From Acutalibacteraceae bacterium (GTDB lineage Bacteria; Bacillota; Clostridia; Oscillospirales; Acutalibacteraceae), in contig JAZNOZ010000004.1 of NCBI GenBank assembly GCA_045589395.1, positions 1,433-65,432 of the forward strand: a DNA stretch of 64,000 nt, read 5' to 3'. The notes beneath the pieces are model-generated. The model saw nothing but the letters and a program-made list of their open reading frames with translations, was not told the origin of the DNA and ran no database searches. Position numbers and translations under genes: made by a program. Below are positions 2,644 to 52,776 of this stretch, piece after piece (the first letter of the stretch is position 1; each line of letters opens with the position of its first letter).

Positions 2644-2791
2644 TCAACCGTTGGTTTAGTTCGATTTTGGCAAAAAACAACTTTTCGTTTAGAAAATTGA
2701 CTCCGTTTCAACCTTTGTTCAATTCAAATTTTTCGGTTTTTCCGTTAAAATATTTTTGAACAAACGGCAAAGCCGAAAGGAGAAAAAGAAA

Positions 2792-3334
2792 ATGACTTTA
2801 TTTACAAAAAAAGAAAACGAAAACGCAAGCGAAGAAAAAATCAACGATGCAAAAACACTCGGAGAAAGATTATCTGCGGCGAGAAAAAGAAAAGGACTTA
2901 CTCAGGAGGATTTTGCAAATTATCTTGATGTTACACCGCAGGCTGTATCAAAATGGGAAAATAACCTGTCTTGTCCGGATATCCTTATTTTACCGAAGAT
3001 ATCAGAAATTCTCGGTGTTGGCATTGAAGAGCTTTTAACAGGCGAAACAAAAAGAAAAGAAGCACCAAAGCGTACTGTTACGGATAACAGTAAACTCAAA
3101 TTAAAAATAAGAATAACTCCTGTAAACAAGAAACCCACAAATATAACCGTGCCGGTGGCACTTGCGAAAAAAGTAGCAAGAATCGGAAACGGAATATCCG
3201 GAATAGTAGGCAATACTTCTATAAGCAACGCACAAATGGAAGAGATACTCCAACTCACCGAAGAGGGCGTTGTGGGAGAAATTCTTAATGTAGAAGCCGA
3301 GGACGGGACTGTAATATCAATAGAAATAAGCTGA
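2792..3334 (+). CDS. XRE-family helix-turn-helix protein with an uncharacterised C-terminal domain
   Basis: HTH_3-like segment 'LGERLSAARKRKGLTQEDFANYLDVTPQAVSKWEN'. I start it at ATG 2792 (RBS AAAGGAG at 2776-2782) rather than at the ORF-track start 2756. Confidence 0.75.
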   Translation: MTLFTKKENENASEEKINDAKTLGERLSAARKRKGLTQEDFANYLDVTPQAVSKWENNLSCPDILILPKISEILGVGIEELLTGETKRKEAPKRTVTDNSKLKLKIRITPVNKKPTNITVPVALAKKVARIGNGISGIVGNTSISNAQMEEILQLTEEGVVGEILNVEAEDGTVISIEIS

Positions 3335-3344
3335 TGATTTCCAG

Positions 3345-3373
3345 TTGATATTCTCAGAGAAATAATATATAAT
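3345..3373 (+). promoter_or_regulatory. sigma-A-like promoter (TTGATA-17 nt-TATAAT), probable ssrA promoter
   Basis: TTGATA at 3345-3350, a 17-nt spacer, then TATAAT at 3368-3373. No ORF follows, and the next feature on this strand is the tmRNA, about 160 nt downstream. Confidence 0.6.
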
Positions 3374-3418
3374 AATCTTCCCGAAAGATAGATTATAACA
3401 CAATCATTCTTTTCTCAT

Positions 3419-3531
3419 CCGACGCAAGTCGGAAACATCACACCGACGAAGTCGGTACATCACTCACCGTAGGAGAGTATCACATTTTGCACAGCAAAAT
3501 ACATCACTGCAGATTTGTAAAACAAATCTGC
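3419..3531 (+). repeat. array of five variable hairpins punctuated by the A(C/T)ATCAC heptamer (putative pre-tmRNA leader)
   Basis: Hairpins are ccgac-gcaa-gtcgg, accgac-gaa-gtcggt, ctc.cc-gta-gg.gag, attttgc-aca-gcaaaat and gcagatttg-taaaa-caaatctgc. Each of the first four is followed by ACATCAC (3435, 3457, 3501) or GTATCAC (3477). Confidence 0.8.
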
Positions 3532-3536
3532 CTTAT

Positions 3537-3888
3537 GGGGGCGAAAGGATTTCGACGGGGAATCTGAGTTTCGATAAGCGAGCAGAGGCGGGGCACCTCT
3601 ATAAAAGCTTCAAGTTATAAAATAAATAACAACAATAAAACAGTTTTAGCTGCTGCCTAAGTGCAACAGCCGTCATTCCCGAGAGTACCGCGGCTCGGTG
3701 CGTGGCGTCATTGAGCGGTGAACGTGAATGAAAAATAGCCTTGTATTTCATCACGCATCAAAGGGCTGGTCTTCTCCCGAGTGTGTTACTTCACGCAGGA
3801 GAAGACGAGATTAAATAAGTAACTACGCTCGTAGAAAGTCGTGAGGAGGGTTTTTCGGACAGGGGTTCGACTCCCCTCGCCTCCACCA
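3537..3888 (+). ncRNA. ssrA: tmRNA (transfer-messenger RNA)
   Basis: 5' end GGGGGCGAAAGGATTTCGACGGGG. 3' end GGACAGGGGTTCGACTCCCCTCGCCTCCACCA, a tRNA-Ala-like acceptor/T-arm. An internal tag frame ends ...NNNNKTVLAAA-TAA (stop at 3658-3660), with the probable resume codon GCT at 3607. Confidence 0.92.
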
Positions 3889-3896
3889 AAAAATAC

Positions 3897-3930
3897 AGCA
3901 GCAACTGAAAGGTTGCTGCTTTTTTATTTT
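3897..3930 (+). terminator. Rho-independent terminator of ssrA
   Basis: Stem agcagcaac / gttgctgct with loop tgaaag, followed by TTTTTTATTTT. Confidence 0.85.
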
Positions 3931-4018
3931 AAAATAGCAACTGCAAATATATTGAAATTCAGTGTATTGTATGATATAATTTCAAATATACTTCTAATTT
4001 CAACGGAGGGATTTATTA

Positions 4019-4585
4019 ATGAAATTTGTTGCAGCAAAATGTCCTAGTTGCGGAGCGGACATTCAGGTTGATGAAAATACCAATAAATGTTTTTGCCAAT
4101 ATTGCGGTTCGCAGATTTTTGTCGAAGAAGCAATTCAAATGATTAAAGGAACCGTTCAAATCGATTTCAAAAATCAGATTGATAATTTCCTTATTCGAGC
4201 AAATGAATTTATGGAGCAAAAAAGATATTCTGATGCCGAAATTTATTTCAACAAGGTTTTAGATATAGATGCCACTAACAAAGAAGCAAAAGAAGGTCTT
4301 GCTGCAGCAGAAAGTGTTATTACTTCCAATAATATTTTTATTGAAAGAGGCCAGAAAAGACCTGCCGGAGAAGGAAAAACACTTTTGTACATCAATGATC
4401 AAAAATATAAAGTAGATTTGGATAATCCCGTAAGCATAATTTTGCCTATAGGAATGCATAGAATTGAATTCAAGCGTGGTATATGTCAGAGTAAGCCTAT
4501 ACTTATTACAATAAAAAACAGATACGATACTTTTAAAATCAGGTTTACGCCAAAGCTATTCACCATTAGTGCCGAATTAATTTAA
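4019..4585 (+). CDS. zinc-ribbon protein with a TPR-like middle and a beta-rich (PEGA-like) C-terminus
   Basis: N-terminal CPSCG...CQYCG double-CxxC zinc ribbon. RBS GGAGGG lies upstream. No closer family recognised. Confidence 0.6.
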   Translation: MKFVAAKCPSCGADIQVDENTNKCFCQYCGSQIFVEEAIQMIKGTVQIDFKNQIDNFLIRANEFMEQKRYSDAEIYFNKVLDIDATNKEAKEGLAAAESVITSNNIFIERGQKRPAGEGKTLLYINDQKYKVDLDNPVSIILPIGMHRIEFKRGICQSKPILITIKNRYDTFKIRFTPKLFTISAELI

Positions 4586-4886
4586 GATAGAAAACAAGAA
4601 TATGTTGCCATATGTTGGGAATATATGCAGCCGATTGAAGATCTTCCTGTCGGAATTTCGGTTGAGTTAGTCAGCGGATTTGAAGCTGAAGGCGATATTT
4701 TAATTATGAAAAATGAAAGATAGTAGTATAACGATACCTCTAGCCTTAAATCAAATTGCACCTCTGCGTTATATTTAGGTTAATGGTATACTTATAGGTA
4801 ATATGCCAAACAAGAGTCAGACGAACACCTACTATTTCTTCACAGGCGGCTTCGCCGTGAAAGTGGAAATCTGACAGACAGACAAG

Positions 4887-4918
4887 AACCAAGGTTAGAA
4901 ATAGCCTTGGTTTTTTTT
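4887..4918 (+). terminator. Rho-independent terminator with no annotated gene upstream
   Basis: Stem aaccaagg / ccttggtt followed by a T8 run. It closes a 300-nt stretch with no ORF of 60 aa or more. Confidence 0.7.
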
Positions 4919-4932
4919 GTTTACTGGGGGTA

Positions 4933-4962
4933 TTGAGATAATTAACTATTATGTGATATAAT
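4933..4962 (+). promoter_or_regulatory. sigma-A-like promoter for the 5029 gene
   Basis: TTGAGA at 4933-4938, an 18-nt spacer ending in TGTGA (extended -10-like), then TATAAT at 4957-4962. Confidence 0.5.
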
Positions 4963-5028
4963 GAAAAAAAGACTTCGTGAAAATTACAAAGTCTGTTATG
5001 AATATATAATTCAGAAAGAAGGATAAAA

Positions 5029-6042
5029 ATGTCTGAAGAAAAGAATTTAGAAAAAGAAGTTGCATTAGAGAAAATTATCACATCTGCTGTACAAATCCCT
5101 GGTGTAAAGGTAGACAGAAAGAAATTTCTTGCTGAGACATTCGCAAATCACGAAGTCATAATGGAAGACATTTTTGAATTAGGCCCCATAGAAGTAGGCA
5201 TATCTCAGGAAGATCTTTCAAAATTTGCTAATAAGCTCATTCTTTCGAGAACAGGTCAGTCATCAATAGCATCTTTTGTTGCAGGTATTCCCGGTGGTTT
5301 GGCTATGGCAGCTACAGTTCCACTTGATGTATTACAGTTCTTTGGCATGGCAATAAGGCTTGCTCAGGAATTGTCCTATCTTTACGGTGCAGACGACTTA
5401 TGGCAGAATGGTCAGCTTGATGATGAAAAGGTTAAAAATCAGTTGTTATTATACTGTGGTGTTATGTTTGGTGTATCAGGTGCAGTATCAGGCGTACGAG
5501 TTCTTTCTACACAAATCGCAAAAACTACACTTAAAAAGCTTCCTCAAAAAGCTTTAACAAAAACATTTTGGTATCCAATGATAAAGCAAATCGGCAAAGC
5601 TATTGGAGTTAAAGTTACAAAGTCAACTGTTGCAAAGGGAATATCAAATGCTATACCCGTAATTGGTGGTGTAATTTCCGGCAGCATGAACTTTGCATCT
5701 ATGTTACCAATGGCAAACAGATTACAATCAGCTCTTGAAAGTGCAAACTTTGGATATACTGAAGAAGACCTTGAAAAAGATATCGATATCATCGAAGCAA
5801 CTGACTTTACTGACGAGCCTGACGAATTAGAGGATATAAAAGCAAAGGTTGTTGAAAATGGTAAGAAATTAGGAAACAATATCTCAAATCTTTTCAGCAA
5901 GAAAAAGAAAGAAGCAAAAGCATCTTCTCAAGCCGAAGACCCATTTGAAGCAATTAAGAAACTTGCAGACCTTAAAGATATGGGCATACTTTCACAGGAA
6001 GAATTTGATACAAAAAAAGCTGAACTGTTGACAAAAATCTAA
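5029..6042 (+). CDS. EcsC-like protein with a C-terminal SHOCT domain
   Basis: 337-aa ORF. The C-terminus 'IKKLADLKDMGILSQEEFDTKKAELL' matches the SHOCT short C-terminal motif. The central Gly/Ala-rich hydrophobic region resembles the EcsC family. RBS AGAAGGA. Confidence 0.6.
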   Translation: MSEEKNLEKEVALEKIITSAVQIPGVKVDRKKFLAETFANHEVIMEDIFELGPIEVGISQEDLSKFANKLILSRTGQSSIASFVAGIPGGLAMAATVPLDVLQFFGMAIRLAQELSYLYGADDLWQNGQLDDEKVKNQLLLYCGVMFGVSGAVSGVRVLSTQIAKTTLKKLPQKALTKTFWYPMIKQIGKAIGVKVTKSTVAKGISNAIPVIGGVISGSMNFASMLPMANRLQSALESANFGYTEEDLEKDIDIIEATDFTDEPDELEDIKAKVVENGKKLGNNISNLFSKKKKEAKASSQAEDPFEAIKKLADLKDMGILSQEEFDTKKAELLTKI

Positions 6043-6067
6043 AACTCCACACATTCGACAAAACACA

Positions 6068-6113
6068 GACCTCCTTGTAAACCGGTATTACCAAATACAA
6101 GGAGGTCATTTTA
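6068..6113. terminator. hairpin terminator between convergent genes
   Basis: 12-bp stem gacctccttgta / tacaaggaggtc, followed by ATTTTA on the + strand. Confidence 0.6.
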
Positions 6114-6151
6114 TGTTTAATAGGAAAATAAATGTATAAATAAATGCTTTA

Positions 6152-7765
6152 TTAACCCCACAAAGCCGATAATGTGGGAATTATCTGTTTTTTACGGCTC
6201 ATAACATCGGGGAGGAATACTTCGTTATCCTTCGGTGTTACATCAAAAGCCTGACCGATGATGTCCTCGTCACCCACAAAAAGCAGATAGCTGCCCTCTA
6301 AAAGTACATCTGTCAGCATCAGAATAACTAAGGAAGCTTTGGTTTTGTCTGCAATGACCTTCATCTGGTCAAGCAGCTCCTGTTTTCTTGAAAGGATGCT
6401 CGCGCTGTCTAAGCAGGTAATCTGTGATACGGCTAAATCGTGGCCTGCAATATGGAATTCCTTGTAGTCCGTATAAAGCAGATCATTTGCAGTTTTGCCC
6501 TCGCCCGAGCCTGAGAAAATCTTTTTGCCAAGCTCCTCAAGAGAGATGTTTGCAATTCGCGCCATTCTTTCCGCTGTGCGGATGTCCCGTACGGTACAGG
6601 TGGGGGACTTGAACATTACGGTGTCCGACAGAATTGCCGCCGCCATCATTCCCGCGAGCTTCTCAGAGGGGAGCAGTCCCTTGTCCTGGAACATAGACGC
6701 TATTATTGTATTGGTGGAGCCTACAGGCTCATTTCTGACGAAAATGGGGTTTGTTGTCTGAATATCAGCAAGTCTGTGATGGTCAATTATTTCGAGAATT
6801 TCGGCTTCCTCTAAGCCGGGGACAGACTGCGAAATCTCATTATGGTCAACGAGAACAACACGCTTTTTTCTCGGACGAAGCAGATGATATCTTGTGAGTA
6901 TGCCTACAATCTTTTCTTTTTCATCGAGGATGGGATAACAGGTTTTTCTGTATTTCCATACCATTTCCTTTACAAGGTCAACTCTGTCCTCTAAGTGGAA
7001 GCATACTAAATCCTTTGTGGTACAGATTCTGCGGATGGGTGTTGACTGGAAAATCAGTCTCGTAGCCTTGTATGCATCAAAAGGAGTTGAGATAATACAG
7101 GTTGAGGTTTCTATCTGAGAAAGCTCGGCATCCAATTGAGTACGGCAGAGGATAAGACAGTTTACATTCTGCTCTAAAGCCTGGCGTATCATATCGGGCT
7201 GATGACCGCAGATTACAACACGGTCGCTGTCGGGGAATATATCAGTTCCTCTGCTTTCGGGGATAGCGAGAACAACCTCGCCTGATACGGTATCTAAATA
7301 TTCGCCCGCATCATTGATGACCTTGCCCTCGAGCACGGACAAGACATTGAACAGCGGTACTTTATCAAGGACACTCGAATTATTAAGCTCCATATTGTAG
7401 TTTGCGATGTCTTCGCGGGTGATTATCCCGAGCAGAGTGCCGTCGTCATTAGCAACGGGAATTGCACGAAGCTCCTTTTGCTGCTGAAGCTCATTCCAAG
7501 CCCTGTCAACGCTGAGGCCTGCATTGAGAATCGGAGGCTTATCAAAGTCCAGGTCCTGTACCTGTGTATATAAATTCGTTATCAGAACGGGAGCTTCAAA
7601 GCCGAAATGGTCAAGCACAAGCTGTGTTTCGTCTGATACAAGCCCGAGGCAGGCTGCTGTATATTCTCTGTCACCCAGAGCATTTCTCAGGGATGCATAA
7701 GCAATAGCCGCCACAATTGAATCCGTGTCGGGATTCTTATGTCCGGTTACATAAATAGGATCCAT
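6152..7765 (-). CDS. CBS-domain-containing family II (DHH/DHHA2) inorganic pyrophosphatase
   Basis: 537 aa. N-terminal 'GHKNPDTDSI' DHH motif, a long CBS-type insert, 'VDHN' and 'DHHR' motifs, and a DHHA2-like C-terminus. Confidence 0.85.
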   Translation of the reverse strand: MDPIYVTGHKNPDTDSIVAAIAYASLRNALGDREYTAACLGLVSDETQLVLDHFGFEAPVLITNLYTQVQDLDFDKPPILNAGLSVDRAWNELQQQKELRAIPVANDDGTLLGIITREDIANYNMELNNSSVLDKVPLFNVLSVLEGKVINDAGEYLDTVSGEVVLAIPESRGTDIFPDSDRVVICGHQPDMIRQALEQNVNCLILCRTQLDAELSQIETSTCIISTPFDAYKATRLIFQSTPIRRICTTKDLVCFHLEDRVDLVKEMVWKYRKTCYPILDEKEKIVGILTRYHLLRPRKKRVVLVDHNEISQSVPGLEEAEILEIIDHHRLADIQTTNPIFVRNEPVGSTNTIIASMFQDKGLLPSEKLAGMMAAAILSDTVMFKSPTCTVRDIRTAERMARIANISLEELGKKIFSGSGEGKTANDLLYTDYKEFHIAGHDLAVSQITCLDSASILSRKQELLDQMKVIADKTKASLVILMLTDVLLEGSYLLFVGDEDIIGQAFDVTPKDNEVFLPDVMSRKKQIIPTLSALWG

Positions 7766-42931: not shown

Positions 42932-43050
42932 CTGTCACACGGCGTGCAGGCGGACTGTGTCGCACGGGCATACCGCTTAATGCTGCTCGGTTCCCCGCCT
43001 GACATGGTTCGCGGCGCTCCGTCGCACAGGACCAACACGCCGCATGACAG
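42932..43050 (-). ncRNA. ffs: signal recognition particle RNA (small 4.5S-type)
   Basis: The minus strand reads ...CAUGUCAGG-CGG-GGAA-CCG-AGCAGCAUUAAG..., the domain IV symmetric loop plus GGAA tetraloop. The termini CUGUCAUGCGGCGUG / CACGCCGUGUGACAG pair. It sits upstream of dnaX as in other Firmicutes. Ends are approximate. Confidence 0.85.
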
Positions 43051-49743: not shown

Positions 49744-52515
49744 ATGCTTATATTAAAAGATATCGTAAAAGATTATGCAGCAGGCGATTTAGGTGTAAGA
49801 GCACTTAAAGGCGTTAATATTAATTTCAGAGAAAATGAATTTGTATCAATCCTCGGTCCTTCGGGCTGCGGAAAAACAACAATGCTTAACATTATAGGCG
49901 GACTTGACAGATACACAAGCGGTGACCTTATTATCAACGGCAAATCTACACAGGATTTTACGGACAGTGACTGGGATACTTACCGTAACCATTCCATAGG
50001 CTTTGTTTTCCAGAGCTATAACCTTATTCCCCATCAGACTGTTCTTGCAAATGTTGAGCTTGCGCTCACTCTTTCCGGTGTATCAAAGAAGGAACGCCGC
50101 AAGAGAGCAATAGAAGCTCTCGAAAAGGTAGGCTTAGGTGAACAGATAAACAAAAAGCCCTCACAGATGTCGGGCGGACAGATGCAGAGAGTTGCTATTG
50201 CAAGAGCTATTATAAACAATCCTGATATTCTTCTTGCCGATGAGCCCACAGGTGCGCTTGACAGTGAAACAAGTGTACAGATAATGGAAATTCTCAGAGA
50301 GATTGCCAAGGATAAGCTCATTATTATGGTAACACATAACCCTGAGCTTGCTGAAACCTATTCAACAAGAATAATCAGCACTCTTGACGGTAAGGTGGTT
50401 GGTGACACAAACCCCTTTGAGCCTGAAAAGGCTGATTTTGAAGCAGAAAAGGCAAAGGCTGAAGCAGAAAAGGCAAAGGGTAAAAAGCCCTCCATGTCCA
50501 CTTCAACTGCATTCTCACTCAGTCTTCGCAACCTCACAACAAAAAAAGGCAGAACCTTCCTGACAGCTTTTGCCGGCAGTATCGGTATTATCGGTATAGC
50601 ACTTGTACTCGCTTTGTCAACGGGTATTGAAAACTATATAGATAAGCTGCAGAACGACCTGCTTTTAGCATATCCCGTAAGTGTTGAGCGGGAAGCTATA
50701 GATATGAACAATGTTATGGGCTCAATGATGAATATGACCTCGTCGATTACTGAGCTTGACCATGACCTTGATAAGATTTATGTAAACAACACTATGACCG
50801 AAATGATGAATACATTTATTTCGCAGGCAGAGTCAAACAACCTTAAAAGCTTCCGCCAGTATATAGAGGATAACAGAGGAAAATTTGATGAGCTGTGTAA
50901 TGATATTCAGTATAAATACGAAACACAGCTTAATATATACAGAGTTGACAATGAAAACGGTGTTATTCAGGTAAACCCCAACAATATGATTAATACACTT
51001 ATGTCAGGTTCATCGTCTTCAGGTATGACAGCCAATATGACCTCTTCCATGACAAATATGTTCAGTTCTTCTATGACAAACAGCTGGGTAGAGCTTATAG
51101 GTGATAACAAGCTGCTTGAAATGCAGTATGATATTGTTCACGGCAGACTTCCCGAAAACAAGAATGAAGTCGTTCTTATTGTTGATAAGCACAATGAGGT
51201 AAACGAGCTTGTGCAGTATGCACTCGGACTTAAAAATCAGGATAACTTTATGTCTGATATGATGGGAATGATGTCAGGAGAAGAGCTTTCTACTACTGTT
51301 ATTGAAGAATACACATATGACGACATAATTAATATGCAGTTCCGTCTTGTTTTTGACTACCAGTATTTTGTGTATGATGAAGCAACAGGGCTTTGGACAG
51401 ACCAGAGAGAAAATGCCATATATGAAAGACAGCTTGTTGAAAACGGCGAGCTTCTCACAATCGTAGGTATTATCCGTCCTGATGAAGACAATGCTATAGC
51501 AATAGGCACAGGCTGTATCGGCTACACCACAGAGCTTATGGATTATGCGCTTCAGAAAACACAGAGCAGTGATGTTGTTATCCAGCAGCTTGCAGACAAA
51601 ACAAAGGATGTTATCACAGGACTTACATTCAATACTCTTACCGTAAACGATTTCAGCCTTGCTGATATTGATATGTCACTGATTGATTTCAAATATCTTG
51701 ATTTATCTCCCTTTATGAGTATGATGGAAGATATTGATTTGTCACAGATTGATATACTCAATTTCGACATAACCGATCTTATGGACTTCTCGGATATGAC
51801 CGAGCTTCAGAAGAAGCTTGTTGAGGGCTATCTCTCCGATGAACAGGTTCTTGCATTCAAGCAGGCTTATGTTGACACTCTGAATGCTCAGTGTTCTCTT
51901 GATAAAACCTTTAAGTCTATAGGCTATGCAACAGAAGACACACCCTCTTCAATTTATATTTATCCCAAGTCATTTGAAGACAAGGAAGAAATAAATAATC
52001 TTGTTGCATACTATAATGAGCAGATGGAAGCTCAGGGCTATATCGGATATACAGTAACCGTTACCGATATTATGGGTATGATAATGTCTATGATGACAAG
52101 TATTCTTAATATCGTTACTTATGTTCTTGTTGCATTCGTTGCTATTTCTCTTGTTGTTTCATCAATAATGATTGGTATTATCACTTATATCTCGGTTCTT
52201 GAAAGAACAAAGGAAATCGGTATTCTCAGAAGTATCGGTGCTTCAAAGAAGGATATTTCGAGCGTATTCAACGCAGAAACCGTTACTATCGGTCTGGGGG
52301 CAGGTGTTATCGGTATTGTTTCAACGCTGCTGCTGGAAATTCCTATCAACTTCCTGCTCGAATATTTCACACATTCGGGTGCAGAAGCTCAGCTTCCTGT
52401 TGTTGCCGCAATTATCCTTGTCGGTATAAGCGTACTGCTCACATTTGTTGCAGGTCTTATTCCCTCATCCTTTGCAGCTAAGAAGGATCCCGTTGAAGCT
52501 CTCAGAACAGATTGA
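49744..52515 (+). CDS. fused ABC transporter: MacB/FtsX-type permease with an N-terminal ATPase
   Basis: 923 aa. Walker A 'GPSGCGKTT', 'MSGGQMQRVAIARA', 'LLADEPTGALD'. One TM around aa 270-295, a ~490-aa extracytoplasmic domain, and a C-terminal FtsX-type three-TM bundle. RBS GAGGGAGG, 15 nt after the previous stop. Confidence 0.88.
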   Translation: MLILKDIVKDYAAGDLGVRALKGVNINFRENEFVSILGPSGCGKTTMLNIIGGLDRYTSGDLIINGKSTQDFTDSDWDTYRNHSIGFVFQSYNLIPHQTVLANVELALTLSGVSKKERRKRAIEALEKVGLGEQINKKPSQMSGGQMQRVAIARAIINNPDILLADEPTGALDSETSVQIMEILREIAKDKLIIMVTHNPELAETYSTRIISTLDGKVVGDTNPFEPEKADFEAEKAKAEAEKAKGKKPSMSTSTAFSLSLRNLTTKKGRTFLTAFAGSIGIIGIALVLALSTGIENYIDKLQNDLLLAYPVSVEREAIDMNNVMGSMMNMTSSITELDHDLDKIYVNNTMTEMMNTFISQAESNNLKSFRQYIEDNRGKFDELCNDIQYKYETQLNIYRVDNENGVIQVNPNNMINTLMSGSSSSGMTANMTSSMTNMFSSSMTNSWVELIGDNKLLEMQYDIVHGRLPENKNEVVLIVDKHNEVNELVQYALGLKNQDNFMSDMMGMMSGEELSTTVIEEYTYDDIINMQFRLVFDYQYFVYDEATGLWTDQRENAIYERQLVENGELLTIVGIIRPDEDNAIAIGTGCIGYTTELMDYALQKTQSSDVVIQQLADKTKDVITGLTFNTLTVNDFSLADIDMSLIDFKYLDLSPFMSMMEDIDLSQIDILNFDITDLMDFSDMTELQKKLVEGYLSDEQVLAFKQAYVDTLNAQCSLDKTFKSIGYATEDTPSSIYIYPKSFEDKEEINNLVAYYNEQMEAQGYIGYTVTVTDIMGMIMSMMTSILNIVTYVLVAFVAISLVVSSIMIGIITYISVLERTKEIGILRSIGASKKDISSVFNAETVTIGLGAGVIGIVSTLLLEIPINFLLEYFTHSGAEAQLPVVAAIILVGISVLLTFVAGLIPSSFAAKKDPVEALRTD

Positions 52516-52521
52516 TAAATA

Positions 52522-52556
52522 GCCGGGTGTTCGGAAGAACACCCGGCAGTTTTATT
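52522..52556 (+). terminator. Rho-independent terminator of the ABC operon
   Basis: gccgggtgttc-ggaa-gaacacccggc followed by AGTTTTATT. Confidence 0.8.
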
Positions 52557-52585
52557 CGCCTTATGGCAAGTTTTATTGCTTCGCA

Positions 52586-52766
52586 GTGATATTATGCTTT
52601 GCATAGTGTTATTATGAGGAAAGCGAATAACAAGGTTCTGACGAAGTCAGGTTCTTATTGTCCTGCGGACAGTTATTCTGCGAATAAAATATCACTGAAG
52701 CAGAATGCTTCAATATCACTATTGCCGAAGGTGATAATATCACTCTGCCGTCAGGCAGAATATCAC
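52586..52766. repeat. second hairpin / ATATCAC array (four + oriented units and two inverted units)
   Basis: AATATCAC at 52688, 52712, 52736 and 52759 (23-24-bp period), with hairpins tgaagca-gaa-tgcttca, tattgcc-gaa-ggtgata and tctgcc-gtca-ggcaga between them. Inverted GTGATAT at 52586 and GTGTTAT at 52606 flank tatgc-ttt-gcata. Central hairpins are ctgac-gaa-gtcag and tgtcc-tgc-ggaca. Confidence 0.8.
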
Positions 52767-52776
52767 TTGAATATAC

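Follow-up and report, generated by a model that had tools for sequence, protein, structure and literature searches.

What fills the interval between a promoter and the gene for transfer-messenger RNA (tmRNA), ssrA, when that interval is some 160 nt long and holds no protein-coding sequence? The question is raised by a 64,000-nt stretch of Acutalibacteraceae DNA (contig JAZNOZ010000004.1, positions 1,433 to 65,432), hereafter the window. A sequence-only reading had described a near-consensus promoter about 160 nt upstream of the tmRNA with no open reading frame (ORF) between them, and had placed there an array of five hairpins and four heptamers. Both descriptions hold. The site TTGATA-17-TATAAT lies at 3345-3373 and the tmRNA starts at 3537; no ORF of 40 amino acids or more is found on either strand of 3335-3536; and the hairpins, with the heptamers at 3435, 3457, 3477 and 3501, have the coordinates and sequences claimed, all five being present in the minimum-free-energy fold. 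The same reading did not recognise, however, that the array belongs with a described family: it is a solitary right-type module of a composite family of gut Oscillospirales that contains the described RNA family Gut-1 (RF01706), of which it is the mirror image. The region is laid out as follows, in window coordinates.

3345..3373, plus strand: sigma-70-type promoter-like site TTGATA-17-TATAAT, 11/12 consensus positions
3383..3413, plus strand: H0, predicted 5'-proximal leader hairpin with conserved core ACACAAUCA (minimum-free-energy fold)
3418..3433, plus strand: H1, hairpin (U)CCGAC-GCAA-GUCGG(A) with a GNRA loop (fold; helix 1 of the covariance model; absent in L131)
3435..3441, plus strand: heptamer 1, ACAUCAC (motif search)
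3442..3456, plus strand: H2, hairpin ACCGAC-GAA-GUCGGU (fold; 5/6 pairs with changes on both sides between orthologues)
3457..3463, plus strand: heptamer 2, ACAUCAC (motif search)
3464..3476, plus strand: H3, hairpin UCACC-GUA-GGAGA with one A.A mismatch (fold; helices 3 and 4 of the covariance model)
3477..3483, plus strand: heptamer 3, GUAUCAC (motif search)
3484..3500, plus strand: H4, hairpin AUUUUGC-ACA-GCAAAAU (fold; helix 5 of the covariance model)
3501..3507, plus strand: heptamer 4, ACAUCAC (motif search)
3508..3536, plus strand: H5, hairpin GCAGAUUUG-UAAAA-CAAAUCUGC (3509-3531) plus linker CUUAU (fold; helix 6)

The site at 3345-3373 is the sole promoter-like match upstream of ssrA, with none between the array and the mature tmRNA 5' end, and the transcription start is predicted near 3380. 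H1 to H4 are each followed by a heptamer of consensus A-Y-W-U-C-A-C at a regular spacing of 20-24 nt, and H5 adjoins the tmRNA 5' end, so that RNase P would cleave after 3536. H0, missing from the hairpins first listed and left out of the covariation test below, is conserved in sequence in four relatives (L122, L124, L128 and L131).

The leader array (3380-3536) is not a chance pattern. Its plus strand from about 3380 to 3536 folds into six hairpins at -42.3 kcal/mol (z = -6.3), and none of 200 shuffles is as stable. Pairs of the form ATCAC-N11-22-ATCAC occur six times in the window, all inside this array and a second one near 52.6 kb, against 1.3 expected. The periodicity also exceeds that of shuffled sequence, a comparison that the sequence-only reading had proposed genome-wide: the unit TCAC, perfect hairpin (5 bp or longer), NNNTCAC turns up four times in the window, confined to 3.4 kb and 52.7 kb, against 0.14 expected from 100 dinucleotide shuffles of the window. 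A covariance model built from tmRNA leaders recovers from the window the leader itself (132.9 bits) and both halves of the 52.6-kb locus, and nothing more. Furthermore, a motif-agnostic scan of all the bacterial loci fetched shows that arrays of such design carry this heptamer family only.

Relatives' contigs were reached through SmpB homologues. A right-type array (AYWUCAC heptamers alternating with GNA- or GNRA-loop hairpins) separates a promoter-like site from the tmRNA 5' end in L131, L132, L133 and L178-180 (SmpB 99% identical). Right-type leader arrays are also found in L122 (SmpB 88%), L124 (88%), L126 (86%), L128 (84%) and L129 (82%), and in two metagenome contigs, L153 and L174 (SmpB identity not determined). 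The array-tmRNA layout thus recurs in eight lineages besides the window. A promoter-like site stands upstream of the array in six array-bearing lineages (the window, L131, L122, L124, L126 and L128) and none is evident in L129. From this conserved promoter position, the array is probably transcribed as the 5' leader of the tmRNA precursor (pre-tmRNA), as had been proposed from the window alone. Such arrays are not general among the tmRNA genes of Clostridia: the array is absent in L121 (SmpB 92%), L130 (82%) and L181 (96%), the last keeping H5 only, in soil and human-gut taxa that share the first 24 nt of the tmRNA (the 5' 24-mer), and in most loci with that 24-mer. Scanning metagenomes with the 24-mer returned mostly soil taxa and an array-less human-gut taxon, L153 and L174 being the only new leaders. 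Because of these absences, the leader array is clade-specific and dispensable for tmRNA function. In L153, leader hairpins H4-H5 are partly duplicated, with the heptamer ATTTCAC, at 2470-2560, some 110 nt upstream of the leader array proper.

Nine distinct leaders went into the covariance model, a kind of check that the sequence-only reading had proposed. In an alignment that was itself fitted to the model, 95.1% of the cells form standard pairs and 23 of 32 pairs are changed on both sides (67 cells), a result that none of 500 shuffles reaches; when the 3' partner is slid by one to three columns, only 27-40% of cells remain paired. H5 (helix 6) alone has 6 of its 9 pairs changed on both sides. 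This pattern of substitutions strongly indicates that the leader hairpins are under selection for pairing. It also refines the first description, according to which stems differ while the heptamer is conserved. This stands within one array, where stems are unrelated, but between orthologous arrays the stems are conserved and heptamer positions 2-3 are the changing part, the UCAC core being invariant among leaders.

What, then, is this array? Gut-1 was described as three covarying hairpins joined by GUGAAAU, found in human-gut metagenomes only, rated a certain RNA (Y) that is probably not cis-regulatory, and given no function (Weinberg et al. 2010, Genome Biol 11:R31, PMC2864571). At the gathering thresholds of Rfam, the whole window yields tmRNA and signal recognition particle (SRP) RNA only and no Gut-1. 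In E-value mode, and only there, three matches surface below the 50-bit threshold of RF01706: the leader on the minus strand (40.5 bits, 3430-3509), the right half of the 52.6-kb locus on the minus strand (47 bits, 52684-52768) and its left half on the plus strand (40.2 bits, 52547-52617). Like Gut-1, the leader has at least three small covarying hairpins with a conserved heptamer between them and belongs to gut Clostridia; indeed, its hairpin covariation is what a Gut-1 member would show. Unlike Gut-1, it presents the heptamer on its transcribed strand as the reverse complement, AYWUCAC in place of GUGAAAU, in single-stranded linkers of 7 nt; its hairpins are capped by GNRA or GNA loops rather than UUC or UACG; and it is part of a tmRNA precursor and not a free-standing small RNA (sRNA). 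On the transcribed strand its score does not reach 50 bits, and ACAUCAC or GUAUCAC would need A.C mismatches to form the AU/GU ends by which GUGAAAU-type linkers extend the Gut-1 stems. Because it departs in score, strand and linker sequence, we do not file the leader as a Gut-1 member.

The composite family, on the other hand, accommodates it, as its mirror-type module. A pattern scan with one genome per species returned at least 120 loci; among the matches listed, 72 are real arrays, nearly all from Oscillospiraceae, Acutalibacteraceae, Ruminococcus or unclassified Clostridia metagenome-assembled genomes (MAGs) of the gut, and the family is restricted to one bacterial order. From 5' to 3', the composite consensus consists of a terminator-like hairpin, CAGUUAUAUUCGCC, a left-type array, GGCGAAUAUA and a right-type array. 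The left-type array alternates GUGAUAU (consensus R-U-G-A-W-R-U) with hairpins bearing UUC or UACG loops, and composite left halves are bona fide Gut-1 (52-74 bits). The right-type array, 3' of this Gut-1, alternates AUAUCAC with hairpins bearing GNA or GNRA loops, which is the design of the tmRNA leader; the leader covariance model matches the right halves of composites on the same strand, and hairpin types such as UCUGCC-GAA-GGCAGA and AUUUUGC-GYA-GCAAAAU are common to both. A long-range helix, GUU-N-UAUUCGCC : GGCGAAUA-N'-AAU, closes the left array, and N:N' covaries (A:U, U:A, C:G) with two G.U exceptions. The flanks in the Stockholm file of Weinberg and colleagues hold the same structure, GUGAUAU-type Gut-1 copies being followed by ...GGCGAAUAUA and then (AUAUCAC-hairpin)n.

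The opposite-strand Rfam match of the leader is explained by the pseudo-symmetry of the composite and does not speak for antisense transcription. The near-symmetry of the composite means that its strand cannot be read from loop types, and a G.U versus A.C strand test in right-array stems is weak (21 versus 11). For the leader, the strand is set by the tmRNA gene, and on that strand the loops are GNRA or GNA.

The layout of the 52.6-kb locus of the window is that of the composites in the Weinberg alignment flanks.

52522..52547, plus strand: terminator hairpin of the upstream gene (ORF 49744-52515), abutting the composite
52547..52617, plus strand: left-type array, a degenerate Gut-1 (RF01706, 40.2 bits on the plus strand), with heptamers GUUUUAU, GUUUUAU, GUGAUAU and GUGUUAU
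52618..52688, plus strand: composite centre with two extra hairpins
52689..52766, plus strand: right-type array of the tmRNA-leader design, AUAUCAC four times with three hairpins (leader model, 40.9 bits on the plus strand)

The sequence-only reading had noticed that the same design recurs at 52.6 kb, and the four ATATCAC copies at 52689-52766, matched by the leader covariance model, bear this out. Between the composite centre and the left array, GCGAAUAAAA (52680-52689) is complementary to UUUUAUUCGC (52550-52559). No stable RNA follows the right-type module at 52.7 kb. In another strain (L182), the composite centre and right half of this locus (52.5-52.8 kb) are nearly identical to those of the window, but the strain lacks the left, Gut-1-like half and has another gene upstream, a modular rearrangement of the element at strain level.

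The heptamer itself exists in several sequence versions, which we call flavours. Within one array the heptamers are almost always identical. The leader flavour is ACATCAC in the window, ATTTCAC in L131, L178, L126, L153 and L174, and ATATCAC in L122, L128 and L129. The window and L131 have hairpins H2, H4 and H5 in common and agree at 95.3% of positions across 1.8 kb, yet 8 of their 28 heptamer positions differ, all from the ACATCAC type to the ATTTCAC type. We then searched the 300 nt upstream of right-type arrays for the reverse complements of each flavour. This interval holds the reverse complement of the array's own flavour, and cross-combinations are close to zero.

Right-type ATATCAC: upstream complement GTGATAT, 75 occurrences
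Right-type ATTTCAC / ATTTCAT: upstream complement GTGAAAT / ATGAAAT, 14 occurrences
Right-type ACATCAT: upstream complement GTGATGT, 3 occurrences
Right-type ATATCAT: upstream complement ATGATAT, 6 occurrences
Right-type ATATAAC: upstream complement GTTATAT, 3 occurrences

Examples of matched flavours are found at L079 (1652-1836) and in loci L087, L124, L098 and L174, and several flavours coexist in one genome region in L079, L174 and L098. In L174, a left-type array (AUGAAAU/GUGAAAU, 380-500 on the plus strand of the locus) lies on the ssrA strand just upstream of the ssrA promoter and is complementary to the AUUUCAC leader array; this promoter seems to occupy the middle of a composite element. 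Perfect 7-bp heptamer duplexes reach -5 to -7.5 kcal/mol, against -3 to -4 kcal/mol for mismatched flavours. The cognate mature tmRNA contains no complement of any heptamer flavour, and pairing of the heptamers with it was rejected on this ground. Readings of the heptamer as omega-repressor heptads (WATCACW), 16S rRNA 3'-end mimicry, MazF UACAU sites or codon/anticodon-like units were dropped as unsupported numerology.

The matching of left and right flavours is better read as a sign of nucleic-acid pairing than of a protein, and our preferred reading, which we hold tentatively and at somewhat less than even confidence, is that the leader uses its heptamers to dock, by base pairing, arrays of the Gut-1 type with complementary heptamers. 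In such a mechanism the hairpins would be rigid spacers keeping the heptamers single-stranded, and the heptamers would be multivalent sites for pairing with the complementary heptamers of Gut-1-type left arrays, in cis where the two are joined in a composite and in trans where an array stands alone, as the leader does. Since pre-tmRNA 5' ends are made by RNase P, cleavage would set free a leader RNA of about 157 nt. Docking of a partner RNA might modulate RNase P processing or the stability of the pre-tmRNA; alternatively, the leader might titrate the partner, as an RNA sponge that is itself a by-product of strong stable-RNA gene expression. We favour docking because flavours are matched between neighbouring arrays, because all the heptamers of one array switch together, because perfect heptamer duplexes are more stable than mismatched ones, and because several flavours share one genome region, which is hard to reconcile with one sequence-specific protein.

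Several observations weigh against docking. Transcription start, RNase P cleavage and leader stability are all predictions. The 64-kb window contains no GUGAUGU-type partner array. Composites L019 and L119 pair a left GTTATAT with a right ATATCAC, a one-base mismatch, and left-array heptamers are often mixed. The L0/R0 closing helix encloses the left array, and nested left-right pairing would hence need a pseudoknot or a second conformation; folding whole composites, and cofolding with left arrays whose flavour matches or does not, is thermodynamically permissive without telling the two apart. Flavour matching alone is no proof of RNA pairing, since complementary flavours in double-stranded DNA are the same site inverted. 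Finally, the array is missing in L121, L130 and L181, and is thus not needed for tmRNA function.

A broader version of the docking proposal, which we find doubtful in this general form, is that gut Oscillospirales carry an RNA-RNA addressing system in which 7-nt motifs serve as addresses, left (Gut-1) and right arrays recognise only complementary versions, and one such address lies in the pre-tmRNA leader. If so, a Gut-1-type RNA would control tmRNA maturation or be titrated by it, and strain-level address switching would re-wire the link between Gut-1 and tmRNA. Docking of a partner RNA by the leader would, for its part, be a new layer of control on trans-translation in abundant, uncultured gut bacteria. 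It offers a concrete, testable rule, that of complementary heptamer versions. As for Gut-1, an orphan motif known only from metagenomes since 2010, it is now placed in identifiable genomes (Oscillospiraceae, Acutalibacteraceae and Ruminococcus MAGs) as one half of a larger composite, in a family tied to tRNA operon ends and to a tmRNA leader. A long, conserved and structured pre-tmRNA 5' leader is in itself unusual. Our literature search, which did not cover all journals, found nothing on Gut-1 beyond the 2010 paper, on long pre-tmRNA leaders, or on the composite architecture, its tRNA/tmRNA association and flavour matching; the association with stable-RNA genes, the heptamer flavours, their matching and the long-range helix seem to be new.

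Among the rival explanations, the one that survives best, though we think it rather unlikely, is a protein platform, in which an oligomeric RNA-binding protein reads the single-stranded heptamers and the leader titrates this protein or uses it to chaperone the pre-tmRNA. A single-stranded motif repeated between hairpins at a regular 20-24 nt, an invariant UCAC core and hairpins selected for structure and not for sequence are all in keeping with such a platform. The leader may, by analogy, act like multi-site sponge RNAs or tRNA-spacer sponges: it shares with CsrB/RsmZ (which bind CsrA), CrcZ (Hfq/Crc) and 3'ETS-leuZ a short motif repeated at accessible positions of a highly structured RNA, and 3'ETS-leuZ is a functional RNA released as a by-product of stable-RNA processing. 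It differs from them in that its motif lies in linkers instead of loops, is neither GGA nor A-rich, and varies in version between strains, and in that the leader has no known cognate protein or sRNA. The specific suggestion of a CsrB-like sponge, made in the sequence-only reading, finds no support in the data: the loops are GCAA, GAA, GUA, ACA and UAAAA, with none of the GGA motifs that CsrA would require, and no binding protein is known for Gut-1 or emerged from any result here. More generally, no candidate protein came out of the analysis, in which no systematic test for genes co-occurring with the arrays was made, and the adjacent helix-turn-helix (HTH) gene is absent in L122, L126, L128 and L129 while the arrays are present. 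Moreover, at least five flavours coexist, sometimes in one genome region and matched to complementary arrays, a pattern that a single protein would not predict.

An unlikely alternative makes the leader a purely cis-acting structural module, a chain of hairpins that keeps tmRNA folding insulated, shields the 5' end or provides RNase P with the right geometry, with heptamers that do nothing but link the hairpins. The great stability of the leader (z = -6.3), the retention of H5 by the cleavage site in L181 despite the missing array, and the presence of arrays beside tRNA genes as well all fit this description, but linker conservation, concerted flavour switches and complementary arrays are left unexplained, and the same module occurs at 52.7 kb without a stable RNA after it.

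The array could also be a tolerated repeat with no function of its own, akin to repetitive extragenic palindromic (REP) sequences, bacterial interspersed mosaic elements (BIME) or BOX elements, that landed between promoter and ssrA; we judge this very unlikely. Like the REP/BIME of enterobacteria and the BOX of pneumococci, the family is dispersed and intergenic, forms mosaics of small palindromic units with blocks in opposite orientation, often follows terminators and has a variable number of units. Close relatives differ in whether they carry it and in how many units, and it is restricted to one bacterial order (among the matches listed). Unlike those repeats, the stems of a leader-type array differ from one another and it is the linker that is conserved: REP families consist of many near-identical palindromic units per genome, whereas the stems here are not copies of each other, differ within and between the window arrays, and form only two loci in 64 kb. 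Furthermore, the orthologous position is kept at SmpB identities of 99% (L131) and 82-88% (L122, L124, L126, L128 and L129) with many compensatory changes. No transposase association was seen (no dedicated RAYT or IS200/IS605 test was made), and only two of 120 pattern matches on viral contigs are real arrays, on which ground a phage origin of the arrays was rejected as well. Arrays of clustered regularly interspaced short palindromic repeats (CRISPR) and the RNA repeats of type III toxin-antitoxin systems (ToxI) likewise alternate a constant short element with other sequence in a transcribed array, but here the constant element is only 7 nt, against about 21 nt or more for CRISPR repeats, and what varies is a set of self-complementary hairpins, 13-19 nt long and conserved between species. 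No cas genes accompany the array: Pfam annotation of six neighbouring proteins gave no Cas domains, and neither window array adjoins a cas or toxin gene.

It is highly improbable that the heptamers are a DNA-level operator controlling ssrA transcription, bound some two helical turns apart by a DNA-binding protein, for example the product of the XRE-type regulator gene at 2756-3334. The 20-24-bp spacing, the HTH_3 gene directly upstream and the inverted versions in composites (the same double-stranded site) would suit an operator. Yet hairpin covariation and GNRA loops go unexplained, several flavours lie within a single locus, presumably in one genome, and four array-bearing lineages (L122, L126, L128 and L129) have no HTH gene there, which also led us to reject a link between the array and this neighbour.

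Beyond ssrA, the arrays are associated with tRNA genes. At nine loci a tRNA operon ends in a bidirectional terminator and the composite comes directly after it; at three more (L039, L062 and L114) other sequence lies between terminator and composite; the orientation of the composite is that of the tRNA in 12/12 such loci. In L045, an array of four ACATCAC starts 28 nt after tRNA-Pro with no terminator between; the ORF downstream of it (from about 4900) begins MSESKLRDLSMDFSVQIINLVKDL... and may resemble the four-helix-bundle (23S rRNA intervening-sequence) protein family. No tmRNA was found beside the arrays of the genome scan, though tRNA genes are frequent there. In L124 and L129, further arrays lie just downstream of the tmRNA terminator.

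Extra arrays near ssrA or smpB occur at L124 5798-6100, L129 5108-5260 and L122 3860-3994. Those downstream of the tmRNA terminator comprise ATATCAT with ATGATAT, and four ATATAAC with GTTATAT; another array is located between argS and smpB. A conserved insert of about 170 nt, GGACCCGAGAGGGTCTGAGC.TTAAGAAAACAGTCCGG.GGACTGTTTTTAGCGAGGA..., follows the terminator in L122 (about 5060-5240) and in L114 downstream of tRNA-Leu (3646-3729, minus strand), and is itself followed by a second copy of the 3' end of the gene. Downstream of tRNA-Cys in L039, only the duplicated tRNA-Cys 3' end is found. These duplications look like a tiny integrated element or the remnant of an attachment site.

The genes around the leader in the window are the following.

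454-2142: argS
2179-2643: smpB
2756-3334: XRE/HTH_3 regulator gene (Pfam annotation), directly upstream of the leader region
3537..3888, plus strand: ssrA tmRNA gene, tag peptide ASSYKINNNNKTVLAAA (ARAGORN; Rfam 165.7 bits)
3897..3920, plus strand: ssrA intrinsic terminator (terminator hairpin)

The 3' flank of the tmRNA (3921-6151) looks like a variable island: near-identical strains (L131, L132 and L178 were compared with the window) differ in the genes they carry from ssrA to a DHH/CBS/DHHA2 gene (6152-7765, minus strand), and in L132 phage-like genes occupy this interval. The bacterial small SRP RNA of the window lies at 42941-43038 on the minus strand (57.2 bits).

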